Below are positions 8,461-54,451 of a stretch of DNA of 64,000 bases, piece after piece. The notes under the pieces are model-generated. The model was not told the DNA's origin, made no database searches, and saw only the letters and a program-made list of their open reading frames with translations. The DNA comes from Nemertoderma westbladi (lineage: Eukaryota; Animalia; Xenacoelomorpha), in contig JAUCBJ010007407.1 of NCBI GenBank assembly GCA_032718475.1, positions 17,060-81,059 of the forward strand, in the 5' to 3' direction. A program made the position numbers and the translations under genes. Each line of letters starts with the position of its first letter. The stretch's first letter is position 1.

Positions 8461-9626
8461 TGTAAAAGCTTTTGCGGAATTAGCCGGTTATTTTCCCCGT
8501 AAAGTACTCTGTAGTTGGTTTAACAGGCATAAAAAGCCGTATCCTTACTGTACTGGTGTTTTAGGGGACATAAAAAGCCATTTCTTCTGTATGTGTACTT
8601 TAGCGGACATAATTAGCAATTCTATGACGCAATGCGCTAGATCCTCTTGAAACAGTGTAGTTACTATGACGACAGCTAACAGCTGAGCTGTACACGTGTA
8701 GCTTTTTCCTTGTTCTCTGGTGTTTCTTTGTTCGGTCAACCAATCAGAGCGATTCTCCTGCTTTTTGTACAGAAACCTCCGGGAAATCGCGCAATGCATT
8801 ATGGGTCAATGTTTACATTTTGTCCTGAGCCCAGAAGACCGGCTTTTGGAATCTCTGTGTTTTCAGTCTTTAGCCCAACATTAGTAGGCTTAATTATAGA
8901 ACGTATATCTGTTATCTCACTCACCTAATCATATTGTCAACTACAAACACCGCATTTTTACTGCTATTTACTGTCGGTTGTTCATTATATCAGTTGATGG
9001 AATATTGTTATATTTGGATAATATCAATCAATAATCAGACACCCCAATCTTCTTGATATACTGAAGGTTAGAGAGACCGGTTACATATAACGATTGCGAC
9101 TCACATAAAAGTGGTTTGAAGTGAATCTAATGCTATTTCATAGGCACTACATGTATTGGCTGTTGTTCTCTTTATATGTGACTAAAATTAGTGAAGGTCG
9201 GCAGATCGGTGTGCAGCTTTGTGCAGTATTGTGTATGATTGTGACTGATAACAAAGCATCTCCTAAAGAATGCGCCATATACGTGAATCTATAGCCACCC
9301 CGTTGTGTCTAGTTTAAGTCATAACTCTGTTTACATATTTAGAGCGCCACGTCCTAAAGGAACTGTTAATATTTCCCGAAAGTGATTAATATTTGTCAGA
9401 GATTATATATTACGATCAGTCGAATAATACAGTAGGCCTACACCGCAAAACGGTTAGGCTTCCGAATCCAGTCTCCCGGGTATATCCAGCGGGTGAATGG
9501 TCGCGCATAGACTGGCTTCGGCTAATGTAGTGTATCAAATACTTGTCATAGGCTAAAGACGATTTATTATCTAGAAGACATCCCAATTTGGCAGTTTAAA
9601 CTGCTAAAGGTCTAAAAGCGCGAACA
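8461..9626 (+). repeat. 3' LTR of element A (TGTAAAAG...GCGAACA)
   Basis: Same termini as, and colinear with, the reverse complement of the D LTRs. Confidence 0.9.
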
Positions 9627-11875: not shown

Positions 11876-12259
11876 GGCACACACTACACAAGAAACAGTC
11901 ACTCACCCGAGATCGGCCGACAACAAAGGTAGGGCCGTTAGCTGACAGTGTCTGACAGAGTGGTAGGGATGTAGATAAAATAAATAAGGTGTGGCAATAA
12001 AATAAAGTTATAAAAACATAAGGTTATAAAAACAATCATATAAAGTTCTGTATATTTACATACTTAAGGTTATCATGGTTTACAATATGATGTTACAATC
12101 AGTAAAAATATTATGACAATATAGTGAATATAATATAAATAATTAAGGCATAATAATAAACGCATAATCAACCGCAATATAAATTGCCCAAACTATGTCG
12201 CTAAAATAATAATAATAATAAAAAATATCCTTCTGCTTGGCTGGGGTTCTGTAGGCTAC

Positions 12260-12770: not shown

Positions 12771-13364
12771 AATCGAGCATATATCTGTTCCTATATATTC
12801 CTGGCACTAGTTCGAACCTGCGTCGCTAATTTTTTTAAGTAATAATTATTTTAGAAAAATAAATGTTGTGGGAATAGTGGTGGTTAGCTTTCAAATGAAA
12901 GTAAATTATGACCCCCCCCCCCCCCCCCCCCCAATGACATATGTAAACAAAACAAATTAATACAGAGACTGTTAATGTTTTTAATATAAACAACATATCA
13001 ACAAACATATTATTACGCTCTACATTACATAGATATATACACATCAGATATAAACGCGTAAATACTGTAGGTCTACACTAAAACACAGTTACGTCGGAAA
13101 AATTTAACCAAAAAGTTTAAAAATGGGATTCCTCATTTCTGTTTATGCAATAAAACTATTTAATTCAAATTTTTAATCTTATCAAGCGCTACAGTAGATT
13201 ACGACTTGGAGCACAAAATAAAATACAAAATTTATCACCCGTCATATAAAGTTACCAATAACATATATTATATTCTAACTATGGATTGCAGCAATTGTAT
13301 TTTGAACATTAAGGTTAACTTTTCCCAACGAAGATAGTGGTTCAATGAACCAATTAACATTAAC

Positions 13365-15252: not shown

Positions 15253-15762
15253 CCGCTCCATGAAAACAGGATATTATCGTGCATAAAATATACGGTTTTC
15301 ACCAATACTAAATCAAATTATGGAATACTTGGGACGTACTTACATATTTACAAATTAAATTATCAACAATAATACCTCTACATAATAATTCGATACAAAA
15401 ATAATTACAAATTCAAATTTACGTATTTAAGGCTTTATTAAGTAAGTACAATATAAATCTAAATTAAATTCACCAAAATAAATCTATTGCATCTCAAATA
15501 TTGCATAAATTCAAAGAATCACAAATACTAATACTACTTAAATATAAAACAAATTGCATAAGTGCGGAATAAATCACAAGAAAGGCTCACAAGTCTTCCG
15601 TCTGCTCTTGCCTTCTATTTACTGCGAATACAAATACTGCTTCTTTATAAAATATAAATTGCATAATATTCGAAACAATAAATTGCGTAAGTTTGGAATG
15701 ACTACAAATATAGCACTTTCTAAATATAAATCTTTCTAAATGCAAATCTTTACTAAATATAG

Positions 15763-18447: not shown

Positions 18448-21400
18448 TCACGTCTCTTCAAGAAGTACGAGACGTTGTGTCGGTCTGTCTACTGTACGAC
18501 CGTCAATTGTCCGTACAGTCACAGTTCTTGTCACTCCATCCATAGATGGATGTGTGTCCAAAATTACACCTGTTATCCAGAAGCTTCTTTTTAGATTCAC
18601 TTCTGCCAACAGCACGTGATCTCCCGCTCTTAAAGCGCGAGTTTTGTTGTACCAGGTAGTTCTGGCAGAAATAGAGGGCAAATAATGGTTTTGCCATATT
18701 TCCCAGAATTTGTTAGCTAGTAGTTGCGTGATTTTCCACGCTTTTCTACCGTAGCTATCGCCTTCTATGGGAATAGAAATAGGCGTTAATGTGGTCGGTG
18801 CCTGCATAAGCAGGTGTGCCGGTGTCAAAGCAAACTGGGATTGTTTGTCATCGGGTACTAATACTATTGGTCTAATATTTAGTATTGCCTCGATTTCAAC
18901 AAACAATGTTGTCAGTTGGTCGTCTGTCAAGATGTGGTTTACTGGAATTACTTTTGCCATGGCTGTTTTTATAGATCTAATCAATCTCTCCCAGACTCCG
19001 CCTCTCCATGGACTATCTGGAGGATTAAACTTCCAAACAATCTTGTAAGGACGTAGTTCGTTTGAGATTTGATCATGATCTAATTTCTTAAAGGCTCTAG
19101 CAATTTCATTTCGTGCACCAACAAAGTTTGTACCTTGATCTGAGTACAAGCATGTTACTAGTCCGCGTCTAGCGATAAATCGCCACAATGCTAGTATAAA
19201 GGCGTTGGTGGAAAGATCCATCACACGTTCAATATGAACTGCCCTACTGGACATGCATGTGAAAATCAGTCCCCAACGTTTTACTAGTATATGTCCACGT
19301 TTTGTATGTATGGGACCAAAGCAGTCAATTCCAGTCTCTGTGAAGGGTGGTCTGAATGCTTGTAGTCGTGCTTGTGGAAGTTCACTCATTTCTTGGGTAC
19401 TTATTCTAGAATGTACCTTTTTACAAATAATACACATACGCGTCACTGAACTTAATGCTTTACTGGGTCTAATTAATACAAATCTTGTACGTAAGTAGGA
19501 AAGACAGTGGTGTCTTCCAGCTTGTTTCAGATGTAAATGTGCATCCAGTATCATTGCACGTTGTAATTCGTGATGTTGTGGTATTATTATTGGGTACCTA
19601 AAATCAGTATTAAAGTCAATGTTTTGAAGCCGAGATTTATGACAAATTAAGCCATTATAAATAATCGGACTCCAACTTAATATTGGTGATGACTTGATTG
19701 GTTGACCTTGACTTATAGATGTAAATTCGCGCGCGAAATATCGCAATTGATAATGGCGAATTAATTTAATTTCACATCTGTCAATCTCAGTCAATGTGAG
19801 TCGACGTGTAAAGTCGCGTTTGCCTTTAACGTATTGTACAAAACGTACAATCCACGCTAATTTTCGGCACGCTTTGGTCCAAGAATCTGTTAGGTTTACA
19901 ATACGGTCGACGTAAGTATTTGTGACGTCATCAGGTAAGTCAATGGAGAATTTAGAAGGTTTTGTTTTACTAGATGGGCCCACGAGTCCGCCGGTAAGTA
20001 TTCCCTTGTTGACTGTTGATCCATCCGGGTCTACAAGTAATTTGTCCTTCTTCGTCTTCTTACCTTGATTGTCAGTACTTTGTGCGTCGATCCCTAATGG
20101 TGGTTTTAACTTTATGGGATCACTGGGTTTTGGTAAATTTATTTTTGTGCCGATATTAATCCCAGGTCTCACCGTAGGTTGTAAGGTTGGTATGTCTCTT
20201 GAGCGTAAAGTAACACCTGTATTTACATTAGCGTAGGTACTACCCACATCTGTAATACATGAGGTTTCACTGTACTTATGGTTACTCAAGGGTGTCAAGT
20301 TTGGTAGTTTGTCAATAGAAGGCTGCTCCAATAGGGAAACTGCGGCTTTACTATGTGTCGCTACGTTACTAATGTCTGGTAGAACATCTTGTGAAATGTC
20401 TGGTAAAATGTTTCGCGGAACATCCGGCGAAACGTCTAGTGACATGTCTGGCAAAATGTCTGGTTGACCGTCTAGTAACGTGTCTGGTTGACCGTCTAGT
20501 AACGTGTCTGGTTGACCGTCTAGTAACATGTCTGGTTGACCGTCTGGCGATACGTCTGGTTGACCGTCTGGCGATACGTCTGGTAACATGTCTGGTTGAC
20601 CGTCTGGCGATACGTCTGGTTGAGAAAGGCTCGCAAGTCTTCCTGCCCTAACTTTGTGAGTTATATTCTTCCATTTCGCCTTTGGTTTCTTCTTAAGTTT
20701 CGCCGTTGTCTTTTTCTTTGCTTTACCTTTCTTTGGTTTTTTAATTTCGGCGTCCTTAGGAATAGTATTAGACTTGTTATCGTAAAGTGGCGGCCAATGT
20801 TGTGTTGCTCTTTGTAAGAATTGTGGTCCATGTTGCCAAAATTTCTTGTTTTCCGGTTTACAGAATTCCTCAGGCATCATTCCTCGCGATGCAATATCAG
20901 CTGGATTTTGTGGTCCGGGACAATGTCGCCAATCTTCCTTTATTGAACGGTCTAGAATTTCTGCACGACGGTTAGCTACGAATGTCTTGAATTCAAGTGT
21001 GTCATTGTTTATATAAAATAAAACTAACGTCGCGTCAGTCCAATAAAATATCTGTAAACTTGACTGTAGTTCAGTCTGTATGAGGTTTACAATTGTCGTT
21101 GACAGAGTTGCGGCTTGTAGCTCAGCGCGTGGTGTCGTCATATACTTAGTAGGCATTGTTTTAGCCTTAGAAGTAATGAGCGAAACATCAAACTCGTCTG
21201 AGTCTACTTGTCTGCGCAAATACGCTGTCACTCCAAAGCCGTTGTCACTGGCGTCGGAAAAACAATGTAATTCTAAGTTGTCAGGAAATGTCGTCTGTAA
21301 TGGAAAGTACACCCGGGGTATGGAATAATCCTCTAGCGAAGATAATTGCGCCTCCCAAGTCTTCCATAAGTCCACTTGTTCGGATGAGATTGGTTCGTCC

Positions 21401-24400
21401 CATGTCAGTCCATCTTTCCAAATACTGCGCATATATATTCTTGCTTGCAGTATTATTGGGCTGATGAAACCTAATGGATCGAACAGTCTGCTTAGTTTCG
21501 ACAAGCAAGACCTCTTTGTCAGAGAATCTCCTTCAGCGTCCAGTTTTACTTTCACTCGAAAGTTGTCTGTGTTCGGGTCCCAAAATAGTCCCAACACCTT
21601 GGTCGTCGGCAGTGGTTCGAACTCTAAGTCAATGTCCCCACCCCCACGTTCAGTCGTTTCGAATGAATTTACCAATTCGGTGCTGTTTGAGGCAAACTTA
21701 GTGAGGTTAAAACCTCCGCCTGCTAAACAGTCCCGTAATTGATGTGCTACTGTTATAGCACTTTCTACTGTGTCACAACTCTGTAATCCATCGTCTACGT
21801 AAAAGTCTCGTTCTACGATCCGGATTACCTCTGGGTCATACATATGTTTCTGATCCCTAGCGGTCTGTTTTAGGGCGTACATAGTGCAATTTGGGCTGTC
21901 CCTGGCACCGAAAACGCAAACTTGCATTTGGTAAGTCGCCGGTGGTTGACTTAAGTCTCCATCCGGGTACCAGAGGAACCTCAAACTGTCTCTGTCTCGC
22001 TCTAATGCTCGCACTTGGTGAAACATCGCTTCTACGTCACAAGTAAATGCTACTTGGCGCTGACGGAAGCGCATAATCACCCCCATGAGATAATTATTCA
22101 TGTTTGGTCCGTCCATCAAGTCACTGTTGAGAGACATTCCTTCAAACAGGGCCGCGCAGTCGTTAACTACGCGTACTTTATCAGGTTTGTCGGGGTGTCT
22201 CACATAGTGATGTGGCAAATAGTATGTCTGGTCTGTCACAATCTCTGGGTTTGTCATCCTGATAGCGTACCCTTTTGTCAAATACGTCTCCATCTGAGTA
22301 TTGTACTGCAGATGGGCTTTCTCGTCCTTTAATAAACGTTGTCGTATTGAGTGTAGACGTCTTAAGGCTAGCGGATAATTATTGATAAGTTTAGGGCTTT
22401 GGCTACGCCATAGCATCCCTACCTCATAATGTCCGTCTTTCGTCTGGTGGATAGTATCTTCCATGATCTTCAAAGATTGTTTCTCTTGTTCCGACATACA
22501 CGGTTCATAACTACCGGGTTCTGCTGTATCTTGTTCTAACCACCTGATAGTTTTCTCTGTTAATTCTTTGTCTAATGCAGCTTGTTCCACTTGACAGTTC
22601 CTTAGTGTGTCGACATCGATATCGACGGGCATCGTTAATGTTATTGGTGTAGATAGACTCGCAAGCCTTCCGGCGTTATCATCTGTCGTCGATGGAACCT
22701 CTGCCTGACTCGTCTTCTTTTCACGCTCTATACTAACCTTGTGGATAGGTTGCTTTCTGTGACTTATCGTATTAGCTACACACGTCGTACCTGTAACGTT
22801 GTCGTGTTTTGTCGAACGTAGTGTAGTATAGTCTATGTCAGGTGAAAAGGAATGAATCGAAGTTGTAGTTAGTAAACTACATGTACTTTGTACATCGTCT
22901 TCTTCATCACTTATATCCAGTGTGCGCACAGGCGCTCGAGTATACCACCCTATCGGAATTCTACAGGCGTAAGCATTTCCTGCTACGACTACCGATGGTC
23001 TGGTTTCCCACACTTGATGTAAGTTGAATTGGTCTGTCCCGATCAGCATTGCTACTGACCGATAATTAACAGGACATTCAGGTACACCAAGGTGTCTGAA
23101 ATACTTACGGTCCTCTAAGGATTGCTCCGGCACTGGACCCAGTAGGTTACTAAAGTCCTTGGTGGCCGCAAAAGTCAAATCCTTAAAGGGTAACAAAGAC
23201 CTCTCCTTTTCGCTATGTTGCGATCTCGGAAGAAGAGTGTCCAAGTTTAACTTAACTCGTGTCACTGGTATTGCACGTTGTCCATGCATACTACTTACAG
23301 TGTACTTTAGATGCTTACCTTGTCTGAGATCTGTGACGACATCAGCTACCTTTTCATCCACGTAGCTGTGAGATGAGGCTGAATCTAGGATAGCGTAGAT
23401 TCTTTTGCTCCCTTTTGTGCCTGTAATCTTAACGGGAATTACACTAAACCCTTTTAGTTGATCAGGCGTCAGAAGAGCGATCAATGGTTGTTCGTCTTCA
23501 TCCGAGTATATGTCCTCGTCTTCATATTCTTCACCAGAAGACCCGGATTGTTCTGGGAAGCAATCCCAAATATGTGTCACAAAGGTTGGCGTTGTTCTCG
23601 ATTCGCGCGTTTTGTACGCATTATTACATTTCGCTGCTGCTTCTGGGTGTTCCCTGGTGAAGCGTATGGTCGGTGTATGACTGTCCGTGTGGAGTAAAGC
23701 GTCGTGATTGCGTCCACATAAATGACAGGTATCCGTATTAGGGCAATCCTTGCAGACATGTCCATGTTGTGTACACCTCCAACAAGAATCTAACGGTCTT
23801 ATTTGAAGTCGTCGTTCCTCTGAGTTTAATTCCCGAAATAACCGGCAACCTCTTAATTTGTGACCAGTGTGCCGCTTGCCTAACTGCTCGCAGTATTGGC
23901 AACCGCTAAAATCTGCACTCAGTTGTTGTCGGGTCTGTTTGATTCCAATAGGTGCAGACACCTTACTACCATCTGAAAATTGTCGGGTTTCCGTCGGTGT
24001 AGCGTAAGTGGCCGTCTTGGTGGATGTCGTCAGTTGTTTTTGTCGGTTGTGTGATGGTAAGGAAATTCCTTCTGCTACGATGTGTTGGTCAGTGTAGTTG
24101 GATCGAGTCTCCACTACCGCTTCCCTGGATATTAATAAGTACACATCTTCTAGTTTTAGGAATCCACCTCTCTCTTCCCGCTGGTATTCAATCTTCCTCC
24201 ACTCCCGACGAAGTCGATGGTGGAGTCTTCCTATAATCTTTAATAGGACAGTAGGGGTGTTTCCATACTCAAGTTGTCCAATAGATCTTAAGGTTGTGAT
24301 AGCGTTTTTTATTTCGTCAGTGAGTTTTAGTAAGTCGACGGGTTTAGTAATGGCGCCTCCCTTACAGAGTTCTTCTATCACTGACTTAGCCATACTTACG

Positions 24401-24858
24401 GTGCCTCCGTAAATCAAAGTTAAGCGATCGTACGCTAATTCGAAGGCGTCTGGTACACCAACAAAGGTCTCTGCCAAACGTTTGGGTTCTCCCGATAATG
24501 TTTGAAGCAGGTAATTAAATTTCTCCCTTGATGTAAAGGCGCACACAGAGATCTGAGATTCAATATAGTCGACGAAAGTGTGCCAATGTTTGGAGCTACC
24601 GGAAAACTTAGGTGGTTGTTGCACCGGTAGTCCTTGTCTCGCTGCGAATTTAGCTATTTCCTCGGCAACGTTCAAAGTTTCGCGTCCTGGGTTGGCAATC
24701 TGGCTGGTGTTCTCTCTTCTAGGCGCTTTTCTTTGATACGATGTGTTTGTCGATGGTATTGGTCTTTGCGGAACTTTAGGATTTCTATTGTGTTCGAATT
24801 CGGAATTTCTCGAACTGTCGGTGTGAACTTCCTCCAAGCGTTCCTCTATCTGGGCCAA
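18448..24858 (-). CDS. pol: BEL/Pao gag C-terminal half, protease, RT, RNase H and integrase (2136 aa open)
   Basis: KFSGSSKHW, three Cys/His knuckles, protease AILDSAS, RT FYVDDG, RNase H FSDAS, integrase H-x3-...CIIC, GIDCFGP and SDQGTNF. Confidence 0.97.
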   Translation of the reverse strand: MAQIEERLEEVHTDSSRNSEFEHNRNPKVPQRPIPSTNTSYQRKAPRRENTSQIANPGRETLNVAEEIAKFAARQGLPVQQPPKFSGSSKHWHTFVDYIESQISVCAFTSREKFNYLLQTLSGEPKRLAETFVGVPDAFELAYDRLTLIYGGTVSMAKSVIEELCKGGAITKPVDLLKLTDEIKNAITTLRSIGQLEYGNTPTVLLKIIGRLHHRLRREWRKIEYQREERGGFLKLEDVYLLISREAVVETRSNYTDQHIVAEGISLPSHNRQKQLTTSTKTATYATPTETRQFSDGSKVSAPIGIKQTRQQLSADFSGCQYCEQLGKRHTGHKLRGCRLFRELNSEERRLQIRPLDSCWRCTQHGHVCKDCPNTDTCHLCGRNHDALLHTDSHTPTIRFTREHPEAAAKCNNAYKTRESRTTPTFVTHIWDCFPEQSGSSGEEYEDEDIYSDEDEQPLIALLTPDQLKGFSVIPVKITGTKGSKRIYAILDSASSHSYVDEKVADVVTDLRQGKHLKYTVSSMHGQRAIPVTRVKLNLDTLLPRSQHSEKERSLLPFKDLTFAATKDFSNLLGPVPEQSLEDRKYFRHLGVPECPVNYRSVAMLIGTDQFNLHQVWETRPSVVVAGNAYACRIPIGWYTRAPVRTLDISDEEDDVQSTCSLLTTTSIHSFSPDIDYTTLRSTKHDNVTGTTCVANTISHRKQPIHKVSIEREKKTSQAEVPSTTDDNAGRLASLSTPITLTMPVDIDVDTLRNCQVEQAALDKELTEKTIRWLEQDTAEPGSYEPCMSEQEKQSLKIMEDTIHQTKDGHYEVGMLWRSQSPKLINNYPLALRRLHSIRQRLLKDEKAHLQYNTQMETYLTKGYAIRMTNPEIVTDQTYYLPHHYVRHPDKPDKVRVVNDCAALFEGMSLNSDLMDGPNMNNYLMGVIMRFRQRQVAFTCDVEAMFHQVRALERDRDSLRFLWYPDGDLSQPPATYQMQVCVFGARDSPNCTMYALKQTARDQKHMYDPEVIRIVERDFYVDDGLQSCDTVESAITVAHQLRDCLAGGGFNLTKFASNSTELVNSFETTERGGGDIDLEFEPLPTTKVLGLFWDPNTDNFRVKVKLDAEGDSLTKRSCLSKLSRLFDPLGFISPIILQARIYMRSIWKDGLTWDEPISSEQVDLWKTWEAQLSSLEDYSIPRVYFPLQTTFPDNLELHCFSDASDNGFGVTAYLRRQVDSDEFDVSLITSKAKTMPTKYMTTPRAELQAATLSTTIVNLIQTELQSSLQIFYWTDATLVLFYINNDTLEFKTFVANRRAEILDRSIKEDWRHCPGPQNPADIASRGMMPEEFCKPENKKFWQHGPQFLQRATQHWPPLYDNKSNTIPKDAEIKKPKKGKAKKKTTAKLKKKPKAKWKNITHKVRAGRLASLSQPDVSPDGQPDMLPDVSPDGQPDVSPDGQPDMLLDGQPDTLLDGQPDTLLDGQPDILPDMSLDVSPDVPRNILPDISQDVLPDISNVATHSKAAVSLLEQPSIDKLPNLTPLSNHKYSETSCITDVGSTYANVNTGVTLRSRDIPTLQPTVRPGINIGTKINLPKPSDPIKLKPPLGIDAQSTDNQGKKTKKDKLLVDPDGSTVNKGILTGGLVGPSSKTKPSKFSIDLPDDVTNTYVDRIVNLTDSWTKACRKLAWIVRFVQYVKGKRDFTRRLTLTEIDRCEIKLIRHYQLRYFAREFTSISQGQPIKSSPILSWSPIIYNGLICHKSRLQNIDFNTDFRYPIIIPQHHELQRAMILDAHLHLKQAGRHHCLSYLRTRFVLIRPSKALSSVTRMCIICKKVHSRISTQEMSELPQARLQAFRPPFTETGIDCFGPIHTKRGHILVKRWGLIFTCMSSRAVHIERVMDLSTNAFILALWRFIARRGLVTCLYSDQGTNFVGARNEIARAFKKLDHDQISNELRPYKIVWKFNPPDSPWRGGVWERLIRSIKTAMAKVIPVNHILTDDQLTTLFVEIEAILNIRPIVLVPDDKQSQFALTPAHLLMQAPTTLTPISIPIEGDSYGRKAWKITQLLANKFWEIWQNHYLPSISARTTWYNKTRALRAGDHVLLAEVNLKRSFWITGVILDTHPSMDGVTRTVTVRTIDGRTVDRPTQRLVLLEET
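20385..20620 (-). repeat. 12/24-bp coding tandem repeat (PDVSPDGQ/PDTLLDGQ) in the RNase H-integrase linker
   Basis: Visible in both DNA and translation. Confidence 0.9.
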
Positions 24859-27132
24859 CTTGTTGACAACTGGTCTCAGAATGTCGGCAAATTGTTGGGT
24901 ACTGATCGCGTCCGTTGGTTGTAACGCCCTTTGTATTGGTGTATTTTGTGGAGGATTATCGATAAATTAATTATCTGAACGCTCATGTTTACATTCGTCG
25001 GCCGCTCCTGTTCTAAATACCTCGCATTCCGGGTAATCCGACTCGCTTGAAGTACTACTATCACCTGGATACAGTGGTCGACGTGCTCGTGTCCGTTGCG
25101 TCGTTCGAATTTTAACATTCCGCTTCGGAACATCGTCTACTGGTCTCCGTTGTTCGGTAGGCTCGCAGGTCTTCCTCGAAGTCGTAGATTGCGATGTAAA
25201 CTGGTTAAATGGTCGAGTATCCACTGGTCTCCGTTGTTCGGTAGGCTCGCAGGTCTTCCTCGAAGTCGTAGATTGCGATGTAAACTGGTTAAGCGGTCGC
25301 GTATCCACTGGTCTCCATTGTTCGGTAGGCTCACAGGTCTTCCTCGAAGTCGTAGATTGCGATGTAAACTGAATCGTTGGTCGCGTAATGGCGTTTGAGT
25401 CCAAAGTCCTCGTAGGTCTAAACACAGTTGGGTTTACGTTGTGCGTGACCGGTTTTGGTGTCGACGGTTGACTCACCTGTTTAGTCGTCATTAATGCAGG
25501 TCCGACTAATAAACTACTACGATCCGTTATTGGCGGATTACTTACCTTGACCTTTGGAATAGGCGATGATGTTACTCTCGGCGGTACAAATTTGTCCGGA
25601 ATAACATACCTGTGTTCCATCGCATCATGTATAGGAGATATACTGCCACTACCAGCAATCAAAACAGGTCTTTTATTCGTAATTGGTGCGAACATTGGAG
25701 TTACTTGCGGAAATCGTTGACATAAGTCTTTAACCAATTCCCATTCTCGCTCAGGTGCTCCTACGCTTCCTTCCTTCATTCGTTCCTGAATTTGACGGTG
25801 TCTTACCTCTAACTGGTCTAGATCGTGTCCGTCTCGAGATCTCATCGATCGATCGCGGGCTTGTAGATCCAGATCTTCCTTAGCGTTGGCTAATTCTCTC
25901 GCCTTCTTCTCGAGTTCGAAATGAAGTTTAACTTCCTTCTCGCGTTGTTCCGTCTGTTGTTGTTGCGCCTCGAACTCCGCTAGTCGTATAGCTGATTGAG
26001 CCTTTATTTGCCGTTTTTTCATTTCGGCTCTCGCTTCTGAAACTAGCCTTTGTCGCTCTAACTCGGCCGCTGCCGCCGCCGCCGCCGCTTGTCGCTCTAA
26101 CTCAGCCGCTGCTGCTGCCGCCGCTTGTTGTGCAATGTCCAACTCTAACTTTTCCATCTCGGCTGCTTCCAACTCGGCTTGTTCTTGCAGATGAGAGATT
26201 CTCGCAACATTTGCGACGCGTAGTTTCTCTTCCTCTACAGCTGCTTGTACCGTCAGCAGTTGAGTTTGTTCCTCAATTTCTCGTTGTTGTCTGTAGTACT
26301 GTTGTAGCTGTCGAGAAATTTCTGACGTCGCTATACTTACCTCGCCAATTTTGCTGCGAATACTCACTAATGATTGGTCCAGTATTCCCGGTGCCGGTTC
26401 GATTTGTACGGGTGAAGTTTCCCTCGTATATTCCGGCACGGTTTCCAAATCGCCGACGTCTTCGCCGCACATACGTAAGTGATCCGTCAGATGTTTCAAT
26501 TGTCCATCCAGTCGGTACAGTTCCTGTTCTTCCTCGGGCTGTAATAACTCGTCGGAAACCGACTCACCTAGCAACTGGTCCGCTTGTTCCTGTTGTATCT
26601 GTCTAACGGTCGTCTTAAACTGAATCAGTTTCTCCCTAGCGATCATTAATTTCTCGAGGATTCTAAACTGTGTGTCCATATCCGGTCTCTGTCTAGCTAG
26701 ATCTTGTAGACCAATTAGATTATCTACGGACTAATGTACTTTACTCTGTACTCTAACCTGGAGGGTGTAGAACTCAAACCGAGACATCGGAGCGGTCAAC
26801 TCGTCTAATATGCGTTGGCCTTCTCCAATACTCCTGGTAATATGCGCCATGTATCCTCCGACGCTTCTAACCACACTTTCCTGGCTTCCTACTGAACTTA
26901 CCATGTCCGTTTCTCTATGTCTAGGTTGCGGGACCGTTAGAAAATCCTCAGTCCTGCCGTCGCCTCGTACTACGGCATCCGGTACTCCCGTTGGATGTAC
27001 TGGTGACGCGCACGGAGTAGGTTCGGTAGGCTCATGAGTCTTCCCCTGTGGTTCTTCCGCTTCTGACTTATCCGTGTTACATGAGTCATAGTCGGTTTGT
27101 GTATTCTTCGTATAGTCTTATTTGTCACTCAT
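24859..27132 (-). pseudogene. gag: N-terminal gag extension of C (coiled coil, Ala-rich), in frame with pol but with three in-frame stops
   Basis: ATG at 27132 is in frame with 26679 and 24858. Stops are TAA (codon 5), TAG (~26732) and TAA (24967-24969). Confidence 0.8.
25137..25372 (-). repeat. 84-bp coding tandem repeat, ~3 copies (QFTSQSTTSRKTCEPTEQ.RPVD)
   Basis: Directly visible. Confidence 0.9.
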
Positions 27133-27929
27133 TTCGGTAGTTGTAAGTCAAGTAAAGTGAGTGTCAAAGTATCAAACTTACCGTATTTATATCAAAACGG
27201 TATTAATTACAGTCATATAAAATTAGCCTACCGGCCGATTTTATAGCAGATGGATAAAATTAGCCAAGCGGCCAATTTTACAGCAAATAAATGTCACGGA
27301 ATAAGTATATAATAAAATTAGCCTAGCGGCCAATTTTATAACAAATAAATCGGATAACGATATACGTTATCAAAAGGTAGATTAAATACAATAATACGGA
27401 CTAATTCAGCAATAAACAAAGAAATCGTACGGAATGCATAAATACTTGAGACAGTGGAACCCACAATAATTTTAACTAATACGGTAATGCCTAACTGATT
27501 TATGCAACTTTTCGAACTCACCCCCTCCAATGATTCTCCAGAAAAACAGATTCCCAGATACAAACCGGACGTGAACCTTTCCGTTTCCAGCGTTGCGGAC
27601 GAAGTGCGATTTTCCCAACCAAAGTTGTTGAGTTATCTATCTCCCAAACTTGCTAAACACGGTCTTGCTCTCGTTACAGTCTAGAAATGAGCTCTGAATC
27701 CTGAAAAACAAAAGAGTTAGGTTTTACTTTACAAAAATTTTGTACCGGTACAATATGGTATTTAAACCCTTTTTGAACACCGGTATTCAATTCCAAATAT
27801 TTTACACGCGGTTCAAATCAAAATTTTTATTTCAAAATATTAGCACTTAGCTTATCAAATATAAACTTTTACCTCAAAATACAAAATTTTCAAATAACTT
27901 TAGTCCTACCGAACCGTAGTTCAGTAAAA

Positions 27930-27940
27930 CATATTCCTAC
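27930..27940 (-). other. Non-tRNA primer-binding site of C (GTAGGAATATG), complementary to LTR 28967-28977
   Basis: Flush with the 5' LTR end; exact 11-nt inverted match in the LTR. Confidence 0.8.
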
Positions 27941-29823
27941 TATGCGAAGAGACAGTAACAAAATACCCTGCAATATCCTACTGTAAAGTTTGTGAATCAA
28001 ATCATAAATCCGACCTTCTCACCAAAACAATAAACTCTAAGTAAGCGAATATATATATTGCAGTATTTTGTCTCTTATAACCGGTGAGGCAGAAAACAGT
28101 CTACGAACGGACAAACTTCGATAAAACAAAATCCCGCGCAGCGAATCCTAAAATTAGGCTGACTCACTGACGGACTAAGGGCGCTCGTATACCTTGCCGC
28201 GGTGTGATTTATATGGTTGGGATAGAGAAATGCTAGCTAGGTGCAGAGATGTCTAACTAGCGGGCAAAGCGCAGTACAGACAAAAGTTAATTTTATATAT
28301 TTTGAGGTGTAAATAATTTCTAACGCGCGTGTGTCTTGATTCTAAACAGTCAAAGTCAGTTTTGCTCCTTCACATATATAATTACTGGGTCCGGTGTGCA
28401 TTTTACAAATATTCTAATTTTGTAACTTGTAGGTCCAATACTCACGAATGATAAGGCTCCTTCCCCTTTCGTGTATTTCCAGGACTCAAATTCAGGCATA
28501 AGGTTAATACTACGCCCAGAATTCGGCAATTTAATTTACCAGGTCCCTAATACTAAGAAGAAATGTGTTAGTTTACTACAGTAGGCGTACAGTTACTAAT
28601 AGCTAGCCTGGTTTTCTTATCTAGAATTTTGGTTGCCTAGATGAGCAGGGCAACTTCCTAACAGAATGTTGGCGGGGACACGGTAGATGTTAGTATCCCT
28701 AATAGCCTCAATTTATTTTGCGCCTAGTTGTAAACTGCCCTACCGCCTGAATGGTACAATCCTAATTCAGGTAAAACACAGTAACCCTTCTGGCCTACAA
28801 GTTCTAATGCAATGGACACCGTTGTACTACAAACAGTCGCCGACGCACCTATACTTAGCAAGAGTTAGGCGTACAGTTTGCTGCACCCTACCAATGTGTA
28901 TGCCTTGTACCGGTGTGCCTGCGTCCTATCTGTGTACTAGAATCTCTGCCTGATCTCCTCTCCCCCGTAGGAATATGAAGGTCTACTGCGGGTTTTTCTC
29001 TGAATTAAGACAGTACGGTCCCTAGATGTAATTTTTTAGCGCACAGCGTGTCACTACCTCTACCTTCGATCTTTGGTCTTACACTTAGGTAGCAAGGCAT
29101 TGAACGCTGTCTAACCTTCAGGCGATGGGCGAATAACTCAAGAATGATATTGCGGGTTGTCTCCTCCTACATTCCTCAGATGTTCCCGTTCATTGCTGGG
29201 GTCCGATGTTTAGCCTGCCATCCTGTCCCTTAGTTGGGTTCACCGTGGTGAAGCATAGTAAAACAGATAGGAAAAGGGCAGATGTAACAAGTATTTCTAA
29301 CTTTTATTACAGAATTAAACAATAACTATTATACAATAAATGTAACAAGAGTGAAGATAGATAGATAGAAAGAGATAACTAATGAACGAAATCGCACCTT
29401 TTATAGCAAATTTGTGCTGCAATCAATCGAGAAAATTCTCGATTGTTCTATGAGTTCTAATAGGTTTTTAAAGATAACTATTGGTCCAGCCAATATATAA
29501 CTTGCACGACATTGGTTACTATCTAATAACTGCAATCCCATTGGTTAATCTACTTCGAGCAAATGCAATTTAATGCGGTTAATTTAAATGAGTTGAAACT
29601 CTGCACAAAAAATAATTCGCACCTACAAGGATTCGAACTCAATACCTACTACATATAATTTCCAACGCTTTACCGACTGAGCTACTGAACCACTTGAATA
29701 ATCATCGTACAAATAGATATAGTAAATACAAATGAGGACTTAATGTAGTCTTTTATAGCAAAGTTAATTCGAACAAAATAAAATTTTGAAAATCCACGGC
29801 ATTTATGAGAATATAATTCTATA
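27941..29823 (-). repeat. 5' LTR of element C
   Basis: About 13 substitutions and one 5-bp indel relative to the 3' LTR (counted by eye). Confidence 0.95.
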
Positions 29824-30492
29824 TTAACTTTTAAAAATAATTTTAGTCATGTTCAATGAATCATTAATACAAGGAATTCCAAATAATGAAGTGCTACGGC
29901 TACCATAGTACTGGCATTACTAACGAGCTGACACGCCGTCTTCAGGGAGTGGAGTTTCAATACTGGAGTTACTCAACATAGTACTGGCATGGCCTACTAC
30001 TGTATATATACGGCCTAACATGTTGTCGATTTGGCCTTAAAAAAAGAGGCAGGTATTTTTTACACTATTTTGATATTTTGATATGGGGAGAGTTCTATAA
30101 ATTTTCATTTGCTGCAATTTACTCAATGGACGTAATTGAAGTCTCTTCGTTAAGCAAGATACTAAATTTTATGGTAGCTAGTGTTTTAGATAGGTTTAGC
30201 TAGTAATTTCGACACTGGTTCCGATATCCTACTTCCTTCTATAAATATTTTGTAGTAGCTAGTTCTTATTACTATTTGTATAGAAAATGTTCCAGAGCAA
30301 GTTAGCTATTCATTTTAAGAAAAAATCACGTTCTAGAACGAATATTTTTTGTTCTAGAACATTTTTTAGAAAAAAATCTAGATTCTATTTGAAACGCATG
30401 TAATCGTTCTAAAACGTGTTTAAAATCAATAAAAAAAAAATTTCAAAATTTTAATTTTGACCATTCCAATCTGTCTCCACCGATCTATTCAC

Positions 30493-32543
30493 TACTAGGA
30501 TCGGCATGCTGCATTGCAGCTGCATTTTTAAGAATGCTGTGCCGGCTTGTCAACAAAATTGCACCGCCACAACTCCCTATCACCCATGACATTTGCTAGA
30601 TCATCCGCATCTTTAAGGCCAGTGTCCTTTAAGATGCGTCTCAAGAAAGTCATGGGCTGTCCACCATGCTTATTCACTCCATGAGGCTGCCAAAGTACAA
30701 GATTATGCACTGGCTGATCCTCACGGCGAAAGCAATGTCCTGCAAAGCGGAGGCGATTTTGTTCTAGTGTCAAGCTTGGGGGAACCAATGAGACACCTCC
30801 AATGTTATATAGTGTCTGGTTGGATATGTGTGCATTGTACTTGACACAATGAACCCGGCGTAGCATTCTTGTGAATGTGCCATCCAGAGATTTGGTGTCC
30901 TCAGCAGTTAGAGCCCAGCATGGACTCCCGTAGAGGAGTACTGGAACTACTGCTGCTCTAAATAATCGGACCTTAAGTTTCCGATTAATTCTCGGTGACT
31001 TCCAAATCCTGGAAAGCCTATTCAAGGCTGCCCATGCCTTTCCCTTACGTATTCGAAGGTCCTTGAACATCCTTACGTATTCTGACTTCCGGATCCATGA
31101 TCCCAGGTAACAGAAGTCGTCCACATGCTCAAGCATACCATCCTTTGAGCTTATGCTCATCCGATCAGAGACTTGCTGAGGACTTTCAAAGTTAACTGTC
31201 AGAATTTTGGTCTTTCTGGAGTTAATAAAAAGACCAACACTAGAAGCAGCATGTTCTAATGAGCTGAGGAGCCGTTGGGCTCCCTCTAATGATTCTGAGA
31301 GTACTCCTAAGTCATCAGCAAAGTCTAGATCAGTTAGGTACTTGGCAGGATTTCCTCGACTTCTGGAGCCAGTAGGTGGAGTTATCATCACACCATCATC
31401 ATTATAATGATCTAAGGACATGCGTAGAACATAGTCAACCACAATAATGAACAAGAATGGTGCAAGTGTGTCTCCTTGGAGGACGCCCCATAACACTTCA
31501 AATGGTTCTGTGTCACCGTCAACAGTAGACACAAATGTTGTCGAACCATCGTATACTGATCTGATTGCTGCAATAATTTCATCAGGAATCCCATATAATG
31601 AAAGTATGCTGAACATACATGAGCGAGAGACTGAATCAAAGGCCTTGAAGAAGTCAACAAAGATAACAGTCAGATGCCTGTCTTTCTTTTTTGATAACTC
31701 TTCAATTATCCTTCTAAGTGCCAAAATGGGCTCCATGGTCCCACGACCTTTACGGAACCCATTCTGATTTCCACGGAGCAGTCTCTCAATGGGATCCCTG
31801 ATGCGATTTAATAGAATCCTATTGTATAGCTTTGCAGCAATCGAGATCAATGAGATTCCCCGAAAAGAACCATAGAGTGTTAGGTTGCCCTTCTTGGGAA
31901 CTGGCACCAACTTATTTGTTTTCATTTCTTGTGGGACTCTTGTTGTTCGGTACATGTCTACTATGATGGGATAGATGAGCTTTAAACACTCAGGTATTTT
32001 AAAGACCTCAGGGGGAACACCATCTACTCCACTGGCACGATTGGTCTTAATGCTCTTTGCAGCAGCCTTCACTTCTGCAAAAGAGATATCGCCAATGGGA
32101 ATATCTGGGAGTACAGACTCAGACACTTTTACTTCTATAAAGTTATCAGGCAATACCCTGTCATTATTGAGGAGCTTTTCAAAGTGGGCTTTCCAACCAT
32201 TGAGGCGATCGGCCGGTGATTCAGCCTTAACCTTGGTGGTTGGTTGGCTTTTCCGCCCAGTAAGCAGATTGATCGATTTCCATGCCTGGGATGATTGCCT
32301 GCTGTCGTCAACCTGTTGGTTTATTAGCTCCTGTAGATTAGCAGAGTACTGCCTGTTCAGGGACCTAGATGCAGCCTTAACTGCATTCTTGGCCGCTGTA
32401 GTCTGTTTGAGTCGGGACTCTTTCTGCGCCTTATGAAGGTCATTTCGGCACTTCTGAATTTTGTTGTCAGTCCAGGGGGCCCTTTTCCTGTTTCGAGGGT
32501 ATACAGGAACTGTTTCTGCAGCTGCTAACTTAACTGCTTCACT
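30493..32543 (-). mobile_element. 5'-truncated RTE-clade LINE with 11-bp TSD GATCTATTCAC
   Basis: TSD at 30482-30492 and 32544-32554; contains an RT ORF. Confidence 0.92.
30528..32153 (-). CDS. Non-LTR reverse transcriptase (RTE-like); frame continues upstream toward the truncation point
   Basis: QNGFRKGR, DFFKAFDSV, GVLQGDTLAP, LDFADD, RLRFAGHC. Confidence 0.92.
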   Translation of the reverse strand: MPDNFIEVKVSESVLPDIPIGDISFAEVKAAAKSIKTNRASGVDGVPPEVFKIPECLKLIYPIIVDMYRTTRVPQEMKTNKLVPVPKKGNLTLYGSFRGISLISIAAKLYNRILLNRIRDPIERLLRGNQNGFRKGRGTMEPILALRRIIEELSKKKDRHLTVIFVDFFKAFDSVSRSCMFSILSLYGIPDEIIAAIRSVYDGSTTFVSTVDGDTEPFEVLWGVLQGDTLAPFLFIIVVDYVLRMSLDHYNDDGVMITPPTGSRSRGNPAKYLTDLDFADDLGVLSESLEGAQRLLSSLEHAASSVGLFINSRKTKILTVNFESPQQVSDRMSISSKDGMLEHVDDFCYLGSWIRKSEYVRMFKDLRIRKGKAWAALNRLSRIWKSPRINRKLKVRLFRAAVVPVLLYGSPCWALTAEDTKSLDGTFTRMLRRVHCVKYNAHISNQTLYNIGGVSLVPPSLTLEQNRLRFAGHCFRREDQPVHNLVLWQPHGVNKHGGQPMTFLRRILKDTGLKDADDLANVMGDRELWRCNFVDKPAQHS

Positions 32544-32555
32544 GATCTATTCACG

Positions 32556-36700: not shown

Positions 36701-37060
36701 TGCATGGAATGAGCCTGCAGTGGAAATCTAAAACGTCTCGCAGGAGGTTTTGTGTTACAAGTCAGTCATGGATGGATCAAAACGACTTCGTAACCTTCCT
36801 ACAAGCAGTTGTTTGTCTGTACCACGGAATAGGCCTTGATAGTCAACATTTTCAACGTTTATAGTACACATGTGGAGCATAGTATATATTACTTACATAC
36901 TGTAATATATGGCACGCAACGTGCCGACTACGTGATGTTTGTGCATAATTCACTGCCTAATACTGTCACAAACTTCCTTTTAACACGATGTTTCGCACTG
37001 TTATAAATGCAGCATTTCCTCTTTCATAAAACTTGTCATTTTCATTAAATGTCCCTTGAT

Positions 37061-38829
37061 CGGTAATGGTGAAAAATATCGAGACTTGAAAAATATCGAG
37101 AGTAAAAATAACGAGAGTAAAAATATCGAGAGTAAAAATAACGAGAGTAAAAATAACGAGAGTAAAAATATCGAGAGTAAAAATAACGAGTGGGAAAATT
37201 AACGTGATTAAAAAATATCGAGAGTAAAAATAACACAAGATGAAAAATATCGAAAATAACGAGTGTTGAAAAATATCGAGTGTTGAAAAATATCGAGAGT
37301 AAAAATATCGAGTGTTGAAAAATATCGAGTGTTGAAAAATATCGAGTGTTGAAAAATATCGAGTGTTGAAAAATATCGAGTGTTGAAAAATATCGAGTGT
37401 TGAAAAATATCGAGTGTTGAAAAATATCGAGAGTAAAAATATCAAGAGTAAAAATATCGAGAGTAAAAATAACGAGTGTTGAAAATTAACGTGATTAAAA
37501 AATATCGAGAGTAAAAATAACACGAGATGAAAAATATCGAAAATAACGAGTGTTGAAAAATATCGGTGTTGAAAATATCGAGTGTTGAAAAATATCGAGT
37601 GTTGAAAAATATCGAGAGTAAAAATATCGAGTCTTGAAAAATATCGAGTGTTGAAAAATATCGAGAGTAAAAATATCGAGTGTTGAAAAATATCGAGTGT
37701 TGAAAAATATCGAGAGTAAAAATATCGAGAGTAAAAATATCGAGTGTTGAAAAATATCGAGAGTAAAAATATCGAGTGTTGAAAAATATCGAGAGTAAAA
37801 ATAACGAGTGTTGAAAATATCGAGTGTTGAAAAATATCGAGTGTTGAAAATATCGAGTGTTGAAAATATCGAGTGTTGAAAAATATCGAGTGTTGAAAAA
37901 TATCGAGAGTACAAATATTTCATTTTGCTTGAGCATTTTATTTAGAATTATGGAACAATATTGCAGTGCATGGGTTACAACAGTGCAAGTGCAAGTGAAT
38001 GGCATTATGTAATACACCTTGGGTACCCATTTACCAGATTTATTATACTAGCTAGTTTTTGCTATTTTTTTAATAAATATTATAAAAGAAGTGCTAGCTA
38101 TAAATTTTGATAAATATTCTTAAATATTATATTAGAACACGTATAAGCTACCAAATTTCGATAAATTTTTAGTAAAAACATTATTAGTAAAAAAAATTAT
38201 CATACAACCCTTATTTTAAAAAATTGTTACTATCGATATTTTTACTCTCGATATTTTTCAACATTCTATATTTTTTTCAACACTCGATATTTTTACTCTC
38301 GATATTTTTCAACACTCGATATTTTTCAACACTCGATATTTTTCAACACTCGATATTTTTCAACACTCGATATTTTTCAACACTCGATATTTTTACTCTC
38401 GATATTTTTCAACACTCGATATTTTTACTCTCGATATTTTTCAACACTCGATATTTTTACTCTCGATATTTTTCAACACTCGATATTTTTACTCTCGATA
38501 TTTTTCAACACTCGATATTTTTACTCTCGATATTTTTCAACACTCGATATTTTTACTCTCGATATTATTCAACACTCGATATTTTTACTCTCGATATTTT
38601 TCAACACTCGATATTTTTACTCTCGATATTTTTCAACACTCGATATTTTTACTCTCGATATTTTTCAACACTCGATATTTTTACTCTCGATATTTTTACC
38701 CTCGATATTTTTACTCTCAATATTTTTTGAACTCTCGATATTATCGTTATTTTTCAACACTCGATGTTTTTACTCGCGTTATTTTTACTCTCGATATTTT
38801 TCATGTCTCGATATTTTTCAATATAACCG
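37061..38829. repeat. Foldback-like inverted arrays of 16/18-bp units (AAAAATATCGAGAGT / AAAAATATCGAGTGTTG) around a ~310-bp spacer
   Basis: The left arm 37061-37910 and right arm 38232-38829 are inverted, with ends CGGT...ACCG. No TSD found. Confidence 0.85.
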
Positions 38830-39494
38830 TCTGTATGTACATCTACATCTGATTATACCAGTTGCCGGCGCCGTCGGTCGTACAAATACACAGTCTTGAA
38901 TTAACATATTTAACCGTTAACAAGAGCAGAAACCGTAAACGAAGAAATTCATTTTCTTTTGTCGCTGACACGTGTCAGGAGCGTAGAAATGCGGTATAGT
39001 GCTGTCGTAGTTCAGTACCGTACCGGTAGTTCTGTAGCTGGCAGTTCAGCAGTTGCTACCAGTCCGGTTATACTTCTACAGTCTGACAGTAGTCAGGTAG
39101 TAGGGCGGTACGGCGGGCGGTGCCAACAGACCCTCTAATCTAATTCAGGACCGCAGTCCAACAGTCCGGAGTCCGCACTGCATGGCTAATTAGGGCCTAC
39201 AGAATTAGGCCTGTCCTGTAGTACAAGTATACGTGATCTATAATGACTGAACCGGTACCGCGGTACTAGTCAGCCAGTACCGTAAAACACCGAATACAGT
39301 ATGGCTGTATGGTATTGCAGTATTGCTGTATTGGATGATTACAGGATTCCTGATTCAGGGATTGACATTGAGTATAGTACCGGTTAAGGCAGACAGGCCA
39401 CAATGGCATTACTGTAATTTCCCAGCTGATTTAGTCTCCTAGCAACCTGTTGATGTCAAGCGTAATAATTTTGGATAAATAAATTTATTATAAC

Positions 39495-42430: not shown

Positions 42431-43648
42431 TGTTCGCGCTTTTGAAGACCTTTAGCAGTTTAACCTGCCAAAATTTATATGTCTTCTAGTTAATTAAAAC
42501 CACTTTAGCATACGACAATATTTTATGCTAATACGCAAAACATTAACCGAAGTCAGCCCATGCGCGATCATTCACCCGATGGATCTACACCCGGGAGACT
42601 GAATTCGGATCCTTGAATTGTATTATTACAGTGTAAGGTTGCAGTGTAAACTTACTGTATTATTCGATAGATCGTTAATAATTAATCTCTGACAGATATT
42701 ATTGGCTTTCGGGAAATATTAACAGTTCCTTTAGGACGTGGCGCTTTATCTATTTAAACAGAACTAAGACTTATACTAAAACGCAACGATACTGCTTATG
42801 ATTAAAGTATAAAGCGTATTCTTTAGGAAATACTTTGTTACCAATCTCAATCATACACACTATTCTGCCGACAGTCAGTATATTTGATCACACATAAAGA
42901 GAGCAGTAATTGACTCACGTAGGGTCTGCTAAATAACATTGGATTCAATACACACCACATTAATATAAATCGCAATTGTTATGTATAGCCGGTCTCTCTA
43001 ACCTGTAGTGTTATCAAGAAAATTGGGAATTGGGTGATTTATCCGTATTATCCAAATAGCAATATTTCCATCAACAAAATAAGTACAATTAATAACTGAC
43101 GGTAAAATAACAGTACAAACAATATGATTAGTTAAATTGATCGGTAGTTAGGTAACAGTTTATACTTTCGATAATTCAAGCAGTTTACGGTACAGCAGTA
43201 TCTATCCAAAATGCCGGTGTTTCTGGCTTAGACAGCAATAACAACAAAGTATCAAGTAAGGCAGTAAGACTGAACACTCTCCTTATGATCGACTAAAAGC
43301 TACACGTCGACAGGAAAAATCGCTCTGATTGGCTCAAGCCAAACAAAGAACCGTGCGTCCAATGGCTGTTTCCATGTCAGCAACCAGCTGTTAGATGTCG
43401 TAATATGAATTATCACGGCTAAACTGTGAAAGGTAGTTGGTGCATGGCAGGTTTTTTGCCTTACCATGTCCACTAAAACACGTATATAGCAGAATTACTC
43501 TTATGTCCGTTAAAACACCTGTAAAGGTACCTTGCGGGCGAGGGGAATATATCTACAGTTAGAAAACCTTTTAGAGTATTCCAGCGCCTGTGGGGAAACT
43601 GGATTGCGAAGCAAAAGGGGCCAGTTATATCCCACAGAAGCTTTTACA
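42431..43648 (-). repeat. 3' LTR of element D
   Basis: Direct repeat of 53234-54451; PPT at 43649-43666. Confidence 0.95.
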
Positions 43649-43726
43649 CCGCTCCCAGAAAATGGGATTTAAGTCTATAAAATATACAAAATCACAGTTT
43701 CTAAAATATAAAAATACTCTAAACAG

Positions 43727-52850: not shown

Positions 52851-53221
52851 ACAATCTGAGCAGGGTCACACGCCTTCTGCTCAATATTAGCCTACTAGTA
52901 AATAAAACTGACAGAAATAGACCTAAGTAAAATCCCAATAAAAAACCAGGCGTCCCCGATTTAATATCGAGACCTACCGGTATACAATAATCAAAATCGA
53001 ATAATACTAAATGTACTTGTACAGCAGTACCGGTACCGGTGATGACAGTTAGGCCTACTGACCTACAGAAGCACCGGTTCAGTTTTACCAGTCACTACGG
53101 TATTTTGCAACCTTATTGCCTACTGCAATAAGATTGTAAACTGTTACTGTTCGACAGAACAGTATTAAACTGTATTTAATGCCTACACTTGCAACCTTAT
53201 TGCCTACTGCAATAAGATTAA

Positions 53222-53233
53222 ATAAACTGTTAC
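53222..53233 (-). other. Non-tRNA primer-binding site of D (GTAACAGTTTAT), complementary to LTR 53955-53966
   Basis: Flush with the 5' LTR end; exact 12-nt inverted match in the LTR. Confidence 0.8.
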
Positions 53234-54451
53234 TGTTCGCGCTTTTGAAGACCTTTAGCAGTTTAACCTGCCAAAATTTATATGTCTTTTAGTTAATTAA
53301 CACACCTTTAGCATACGACAATATTTTATGCTAATAAACAAAACATTAGCCGAAGCCAGCCCATGCGCGATCATTCACCCGATGGATCTACACCCGGGAG
53401 GCTGAATTCGGATGCTTAGATTTTATTATTGCAGTGTAAGGTTGCAGTGTAAACCTATTGTATTATTCGATAGATCACTAATATGTAATTTCTGACAGAT
53501 ATTATTAACTTTCGGGAAATATTAACAGTTCCTTTAGGACGTGGCGCTCTATCTATTTAAACAGAGCTAAGACTTATACTAAAACGCAACGATACTGCTT
53601 ATGATTAAAGTATAAAGCGTATTCTTTAGGAAATACTTTGTTACCAATCTCAATCATACACACTATTCTGCCGACAGTCAGTATATTTGATCACACATAA
53701 AGAGAGCAGTAATTGACTCACGTAGGGTCTGCTAAATAACATTGGATTCAATACACACCACATTAATATAAATCGCAATTGTTATGTATAGCCGGTCTCT
53801 CTAACCTGTAGTGTTATCAAGAAAATTGGGAATTGGGTGATTTATCCGTATTATCCAAATAGCAATATTTCCATCAACAAAATAAGTACAATTAATAACT
53901 GACGGTAAAATAACAGTACAAACAATATGATTAGTTAAATTGATCGGTAGTTAGGTAACAGTTTATACTTTCAATAATTCAAGCAGTTTACGGTACAGCA
54001 GTATCTATCCAAAATGCCGGTGTTTCTGGCTTAGACAGCAATAACAACAAAGTATCAAGTAAGGCAGTAAGACTGAACACTCTCCTTATGATCGACTAAA
54101 AGCTACACGTCGACAGGAAAAATCGCTCTGATTGGCTCAAGCCAAACAAAGAACCGTGCGTCCAATGGCTGTTTCCATGTCAGCAACCAGCTGTTAGATG
54201 TCGTAATATGAATTATCACGGCTAAACTGTGAAAGGTAGTTGGTGCATGGCAGGTTTTTTGCCTTACCATGTCCACTAAAACACGTATATAGCAGAATTA
54301 CTCTTATGTCCGTTAAAACACCTGTAAAGGTACCTTGCGGGCGAGGGGAATATATCTACAGTTAGAAAACCTTTTAGAGTATTCCAGCGCCTGTGGGGAA
54401 ACTGGATTGCGAAGCAAAAGGGGCCAGTTATATCCCACAGAAGCTTTTACA
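53234..54451 (-). repeat. 5' LTR of element D
   Basis: Direct repeat of 42431-43648. Confidence 0.95.

Follow-up and report, generated by a model that had tools for sequence, protein, structure and literature searches.

The window, by which we mean the whole stretch of 64,000 nucleotides of Nemertoderma westbladi DNA analysed here, contains a 16.5 kb element on the minus strand, termed element C, which was delimited by self-comparison of the window. C is bounded by two long terminal repeats (LTRs), and its main structural and coding features are the following.

29823-27941, minus strand: 5′ LTR of C, 1883 bp, termini TAT..ATA
15252-13365, minus strand: 3′ LTR of C, 1888 bp, carrying a copy of the predicted primer at 14401-14391
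29824..29828, minus strand: target-site duplication GTTAA, 5 bp, with its second copy at 13364-13360
24967..26730, minus strand: N-terminal gag-like open reading frame (ORF), 587 aa from stop to stop
18448..24966, minus strand: BEL/Pao gag-pol frame, 2172 aa
16135..17097, minus strand: additional ORF of 320 aa, behind pol and ahead of the 3′ LTR
15253..15266, minus strand: polypurine-tract region, nearly identical to those of the neighbouring elements D and A

The two LTRs are 99.0% identical, with 18 columns differing, and their termini are TAT..ATA, not TG..CA; a TA end is also found in two relatives of C (L011 and L037). The LTR end was set at 27941 because the GTTAA duplication is present on both flanks. 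The gag-like ORF is ended by an in-frame stop at 24969-24967, ahead of the 2172-aa frame; this copy carries a stop in gag. The long frame contains DUF1759 (Pfam E = 2.7e-10), a zinc knuckle, a reverse transcriptase (RT) with its YVDD motif at 1056, Peptidase_A17 (2.1e-42), an integrase HHCC motif at 1812 and DUF5641 (2.3e-20), in the order RT, RNase H, integrase. Among the best 120 of 732 homologues, identity to C is 38–44%, PF05380 is present in all, and the named sources are sea urchins, corals and other marine invertebrates. By its domains, two LTRs, target duplication and polypurine tract, C is a BEL/Pao (Belpaoviridae) LTR retrotransposon. Membership of the Tf1/sushi group, which are Ty3/gypsy chromoviruses, was considered and rejected, as the Pfam matches are BEL/Pao-specific and there is no chromodomain match.

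Several further observations concern the body of C and its surroundings. The 320-aa extra ORF has a basic C-terminus and no Pfam match. In the U3 of both LTRs (~29695-29620, minus strand), reading by eye showed a stretch resembling a tRNA or SINE, with motifs like an A-box and a B-box, for which ARAGORN and Rfam return no match; across the whole window there is likewise no Rfam match and no tRNA gene. A nested solo LTR in U3 was rejected because no target duplication backs it. A search of viral contigs found no relative. C seems to have inserted into the upstream region of B, a degenerate BEL element with DUF1759 (9976-13364 and 29824-30020, minus strand), and in sequencing run X1, which covers neither the predicted primer nor the PBS, one contig joins 13362 to 29859, resembling an empty site. 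The LTR end of B is not fixable, and its primer and primer-binding site candidates are solely AT-rich and of low complexity.

Directly after the 5′ LTR of C lies a predicted primer-binding site (PBS), the complement of which is found within the LTR itself.

27930..27940, minus strand: predicted PBS of C, 11 nt GTAGGAATATG, flush with the LTR end
28967..28977, minus strand: predicted self-primer of C (LTR position 847-857), complementary to the PBS at every base and ending 3′ in AC

As an earlier note on this DNA had claimed, the reverse complement of the first 11 internal nucleotides (27940-27930) is present without mismatch at 28977-28967 and, in the 3′ LTR, at 14401-14391, and the site lacks TGG. 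TGG first occurs 146 nt into the internal region. The 18-nt tRNA-type PBS, an ICTV trait that is descriptive rather than phylogenetic, is likewise absent from C. The note's estimate that such an 11-mer would arise by chance once in 1000–2000 cases holds against computed values of 0.0008–0.0014: complements of at least 11 nt occur at 10 of 12,647 other internal start positions (0.0008) and in 7 of 5000 dinucleotide-shuffled LTRs (0.0014). The longest match in a same-strand control is 6 nt, and further 11-mers occur in the C leader at positions 60 and 716. A published criterion predicts a self-primer from an LTR complement of at least 10 bp that lies 0–5 bp after the LTR (PMC6317226); C has 11 nt and D has 12 nt, both flush with the LTR.

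The arrangement in D, which uses other letters and had been reported in the same note, was recovered as a 12-nt flush complement (53233-53222 versus 53966-53955). The features of D and of its sister element A are as follows.

54451-53234, minus strand: 5′ LTR of D, 1218 bp, termini TGT..ACA
43648-42431, minus strand: 3′ LTR of D, with the primer copy at 43163-43152
53955..53966, minus strand: predicted self-primer of D, LTR position 486-497, 3′ end AC
53222..53233, minus strand: predicted PBS of D, 12 nt, flush with the LTR
53137..53147, minus strand: second copy of the D PBS, 11 nt
8461..9626, plus strand: 3′ LTR of A, without the primer letters of D at the aligned place

D is flanked by the target duplication TCACA, and its first TGG lies at 144 nt of the internal region. 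Matches of this length occur at 2 of 9544 internal starts (0.0002) and in 0 of 5000 shuffles, and the cross-matches of C with D and of D with C reach 5 and 6 nt. The second PBS copy belongs to a short duplication of the LTR end, PBS and hairpin (~53160-53105, minus strand). Relative to A (1347-9626), the PBS of which is outside the window, D (42431-54451) lacks two blocks of pol of ~1.7–1.8 kb (RT-RNase H and integrase) and is therefore likely to be non-autonomous; it still has an ORF of 1404 aa and a primer/PBS pair of its own. The differences between the two D LTRs are skewed, with 25 of 26 in LTR positions 886-1163 and a single one in positions 1-885, a pattern that suggests recombination or conversion.

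Relatives of C were taken from a metagenome scan as the best 80 of 485 confirmed loci, which besides C and A represent 51 families at 88% identity. They derive from collapsed metagenome assemblies and are ~43% identical to C in RT-RNase H. A long-range direct repeat is present at 32 loci, and 15 have both LTR copies diverging; with L015 left out as a duplicate of L019, and L073 replaced by its family member L074 (the 3′ LTR of which ends at the contig end), 14 families were obtained. The LTR ends of L052, L059 and L077 were placed by the analyst at the nearest CA, and L052 was initially excluded and tested afterwards.

A self-complement of 10–15 nt, located 0–4 nt after the LTR, is present in all 14 families with a defined LTR end; in two of these it is contiguous, as in C and D (L011, 11 nt; L035, 10 nt). 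L030 is the single relative with a TGG no more than 10 nt from the end of the LTR; it begins 1 nt after the LTR (1 of 14 relatives, or 1 of 16 elements when C and D are included). A search of the loci for recurrent TGG motifs fell on coding sequence. Exact matches of at least 10 nt link 14 of 16 elements to their own LTR and occur in 7 of 228 cross-pairs, a total from which the 12 cross-pairs among four kin families were removed; these four have almost the same PBS and do not count as independent. In 14 of the 16 elements, among them C and D, the 3′ end of the primer is AC. Complementarity that is kept while the letters change between families is seen in D and in each of the 14 families with a defined LTR end. 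The complement feature is real and is common to a wide group of elements. One PBS is held in common by L004, L014, L036, L059 and L077, and we take this site to resemble a tRNA T-loop, in the same sense and not as its complement.

In 12 of the 14 families the complement is split: the LTR contains a gap bounded by GT..AG, and pairing is achieved solely across the exon junction, where it spans 10–15 nt, compared with 5–8 nt for the best contiguous (unspliced) match. Ten families are exact over 10–15 nt, while L076 and L077 pair over 11 and 12 nt with one G-U; L078, the sister of L076, has an exact junction match of 11 nt. The predicted introns are 71–409 nt long, with the donor GTAAGT in 7 of 12 and near-consensus donors in the others. 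The recurrence of the pairing in D and the relatives, with own-pair matches far more frequent than cross-pair ones, strongly supports the earlier reading of C as self-priming, which had missed the splitting of the primer by a predicted LTR intron in most relatives. The idea of a split arose from ten LTRs read by eye, in which a stretch bounded by GT..AG interrupted the complement; for L008, L014, L030, L036 and L052 the donor halves were inspected only afterwards, and they fitted. Out of 256 possible border pairs, GT-AG ranks first (score 139; mean 42, s.d. 20; 13 loci summed). When canonical splice sites are required and one G-U is allowed, 12 of 15 elements score above every one of the 20 control windows taken downstream of them; for L059 and for D a single window did as well or better, and L074 did not pass the stricter acceptor filter. 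In 31 further loci scanned blind, complements of at least 11 nt were obtained in 14, compared with 2 for each of three letter maps that were wrong; 20 of the 31 loci had been picked since an earlier scan had listed a candidate or 5′ region, and because such picking favours the true letter map, the scan is taken as supporting only. Spliced LTR copies were sought in DNA with 11 probes among the 80 loci, with 0 matches.

In an unrooted RT-RNase H tree of 53 rows, built with no named reference elements, C groups with A on long branches (SH-aLRT 100), and families of the contiguous and the split type occur among one another. For three fixed contiguous rows the tree forces at least three changes between the contiguous and split states, and being unrooted it gives no direction of intron gain or loss.

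Predicted folding of the leader RNAs places the primer on the PBS in both elements of the window. In C, with a leader of 1077 nt that begins at the primer and extends 40 nt beyond the LTR, a probability of 0.9–1.0 is reached by 10 of the 11 primer:PBS pairs, and in the D leader (773 nt) 11 of 12 have a probability of at least 0.94. The prediction depends on where the RNA begins: the pairing of C is kept with 100 nt added at the 5′ end and lost with 400 nt, and that of D falls to 0.3 with 30 nt and is lost with 100 nt and also with 400 nt. Three further structures lie close to the pairing.

27904..27929, minus strand: 11-bp hairpin directly 3′ of the C PBS (z -3.8, 0/200 shuffles)
53192..53220, minus strand: 12-bp hairpin 3′ of the D PBS (z -5.2, 0/200 shuffles)
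28982..28988, minus strand: possible second 7-bp helix in C, pairing with bases 3′ of the PBS (p=0.053)

C and D alone have a significant post-PBS hairpin, and among 13 relatives none is individually significant. The possible second helix of C lies just 5′ of the 11-mer and competes with the post-PBS hairpin; across elements, this outer extension of the helix is borderline (combined p=0.083). An inner, Tf1-like extension does no better than in shuffled sequences (p=0.15 in C; p=0.85 for 15 elements combined), and hairpins at the U5 end show weak enrichment overall (combined p=0.003) and none in C (p=0.67).

Signals for transcription and polyadenylation were compared with the position of the primer.

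29003..29008, minus strand: TTAATT, weak TATA candidate of C
29303..29405, minus strand: rival promoter-like block upstream of the C primer, with TATAAAAG at 29405 and AATAAA at 29308
28712..28717, minus strand: AATAAA, candidate polyadenylation signal of C, 250 nt downstream of the primer

The initiator-like context TTCATATT and the upstream TTAATT, on which a transcription start near 28977 had been proposed, are both present; TTAATT is no consensus TATA box, and a better TATA-like motif lies at 29405. In C, L030 and L035 a YCA lies no more than 2 nt from where the primer begins, which we take to be initiator-like, and L008 has what is presumably a TATA-like motif ~30 nt before its primer. 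Motif support for a start at 28977 is weak, and we regard transcription of C from 28977 ± 2 as a tentative placement, just short of an even chance. With the intron excluded, 10 of 13 relatives have a polyadenylation hexamer downstream of the primer and none of the 13 has one upstream; D has one downstream, and C has two on each side, with the 3′ LTR copy of AATAAA at about 14141-14136.

Self-priming has been shown or predicted for Tf1/sushi elements, Tcn1 and the Copia TAR lineage (PMC6317226, PMC4600332). In Tf1, the RNA's initial 11 bases are described as pairing with the PBS, and RNase H as cutting between bases 11 and 12 (PMC7175516, PMC5341516); primer retention on Tf1 cDNA is described in PMC11042837, where about half of the cDNA is given as keeping the copied PBS. 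By comparison of these accounts with the sequences, C likely primes reverse transcription in a Tf1-like manner, with a piece of its own RNA and not with a host tRNA. The RNA of C would start at or somewhat upstream of the primer, which would reach the PBS by folding back across R-U5, a span of 1026 nt in C. A cut by RNase H behind AC, as in Tf1, would follow, and minus-strand DNA would begin at the last base of the LTR. Strong-stop DNA would end at the cut and jump to the 3′ R, and the primer would never be copied in strong-stop DNA; primer and U3 would be copied from the 3′ LTR, and the PBS would be re-copied from the retained primer, which would keep primer and PBS matched. In split families, the primer would be assembled when the 5′ LTR copy is spliced, and the intron would be passed on by the 3′ copy that stays unspliced; because the primer comes from the 3′ LTR, the intron would stay in both LTRs and the PBS would match the spliced form alone. 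This scheme predicts a poly(A) site of C downstream of LTR position 857, in which case the TATA/AATAAA block at 29405-29303 should not delimit the working R of C. C and D are the intron-free form and have the longest loops (1.0 and 0.7 kb) among the elements measured here. It also appears likely, if less so than self-priming in C itself, that a broad marine branch of BEL/Pao has dropped tRNA priming, and that in most of its families the spliceosome builds the primer and so gates reverse transcription.

Other explanations of the complement differ widely in how well they accommodate these data. That it is a chance match, or a one-off fold-back duplication in this copy, is highly improbable: a single 11-mer has p ~0.001 and the C leader contains the two others given above, but chance and duplication are contradicted by the cross-family tests, since D and the 14 families show the pairing independently and in letters of their own, and DNA fold-back cannot make matches that span a junction. 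A better case can be made that the pairing is real but structural, serving packaging, dimerisation or translation control, and that a host RNA or tRNA fragment of a kind not yet recognised primes at or near the site. Half-tRNA primers without TGG are on record for Copia lineages (PMC6317226), a strong hairpin adjoins the PBS in C and D, and L030 does have a TGG. We nevertheless consider this explanation unlikely, given that some 12 unrelated PBS sequences each match their own LTR only, that the helix in every case starts 0–4 nt off the end of the LTR, the place at which a primer has to terminate, and that the common 3′ AC fits a cut site; host-RNA priming would moreover require a separate host RNA for each family.

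Where the RNA begins is a question within the self-priming reading, not one that competes with it. Transcription might start well upstream of 28977, with the primer an internal piece freed by a 3′ cut, unlike the capped 5′ end that serves in Tf1; we hold this variant to be possible, at somewhat less than even chance. It would account for the second helix 5′ of the primer, which, if real, needs an RNA start further upstream than 28977; the promoter motifs at 28977 are weak, and split families would otherwise need first exons of just 4–9 nt, as counted from an RNA start at the primer. Against it stand the YCA of C, L030 and L035 and the motif of L008, in so far as we read them correctly as promoter signals, and the loss of predicted pairing with long 5′ extensions.

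Self-priming by an element such as C would resemble several known systems and differ from each. Tf1, Tf2, Tj1 and the Tf1/sushi group share with C an LTR segment of ~11 nt complementary to an LTR-adjoining PBS, without a tRNA, as described in PMC4600332; they are Ty3/gypsy chromoviruses, whereas C is BEL/Pao by its domains. The C loop of 1026 nt has no significant inner stem, unlike Tf1, and the relatives of C allow a spacer of 0–4 nt and have a mostly intron-split primer, which the portions of the Tf1 literature consulted do not describe. Tcn1 (Gypsy) and TAR/Houba/Osr-1 (Copia) of plants were predicted by the LTR-complement criterion that also applies to C and D (PMC6317226), but belong to other superfamilies and other hosts. 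With Belpaoviridae (BEL/Pao, Semotivirus), C shares domain content and order, LTRs, polypurine tract and animal-type relatives. The ICTV describes this family as host-tRNA-primed, with an 18-nt PBS for tRNA-Arg or tRNA-Gly, LTRs of 0.2–1.2 kb and genomes of 4.2–10 kb (PMC8742986); C has no such PBS, its LTRs are 1.9 kb and its length is 16.5 kb. The fungal GalEa Copia elements, with their Conserved Hairpin Site, are similar in having no tRNA PBS and a hairpin just after the LTR, but their authors found no LTR complement (PMC5445492), whereas in the C group it is the complement that is conserved, with a significant hairpin in C and D alone.

Full-text literature searches, in the parts of freely available articles that they reached, found no account of self-priming in BEL/Pao or of a splice-built primer. 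The main texts of PMC3118150, PMC6238403 and PMC8556966 contain no mention of PBS, primer, tRNA or priming, that of PMC554778 (Sinbad) refers to PCR primers only, and the consulted parts of PMC3601003, PMC8220671, PMC6934838, PMC5445492 and PMC5443660 make no link between BEL/Pao and self-priming. If the proposed reading is true, self-primed reverse transcription extends to a third LTR superfamily, BEL/Pao, and the ICTV statement that belpaovirids are tRNA-primed needs correction; the missing PBS of many marine BEL/Pao elements would be explained, and annotation tools would gain a test. Self-primed elements would also be expected to lie beyond the reach of control exerted by way of the tRNA supply or of tRNA fragments. 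Building the primer by splicing would link the spliceosome with the start of reverse transcription, a link not found in the literature searched.

The remainder of the window holds other repetitive DNA. Two arrays of 15/17-bp repeats face each other to form a long inverted repeat at 36966-38899. Retroelement fragments on the minus strand at 30528-32546, 56321-57226 and 59083-60327 contain two RVT_1 ORFs and one integrase (H2C2 + rve) ORF, and tandem repeats of ~163, 287 and 84 bp occur at 61402-62169, 52276-52850 and 25136-25387.
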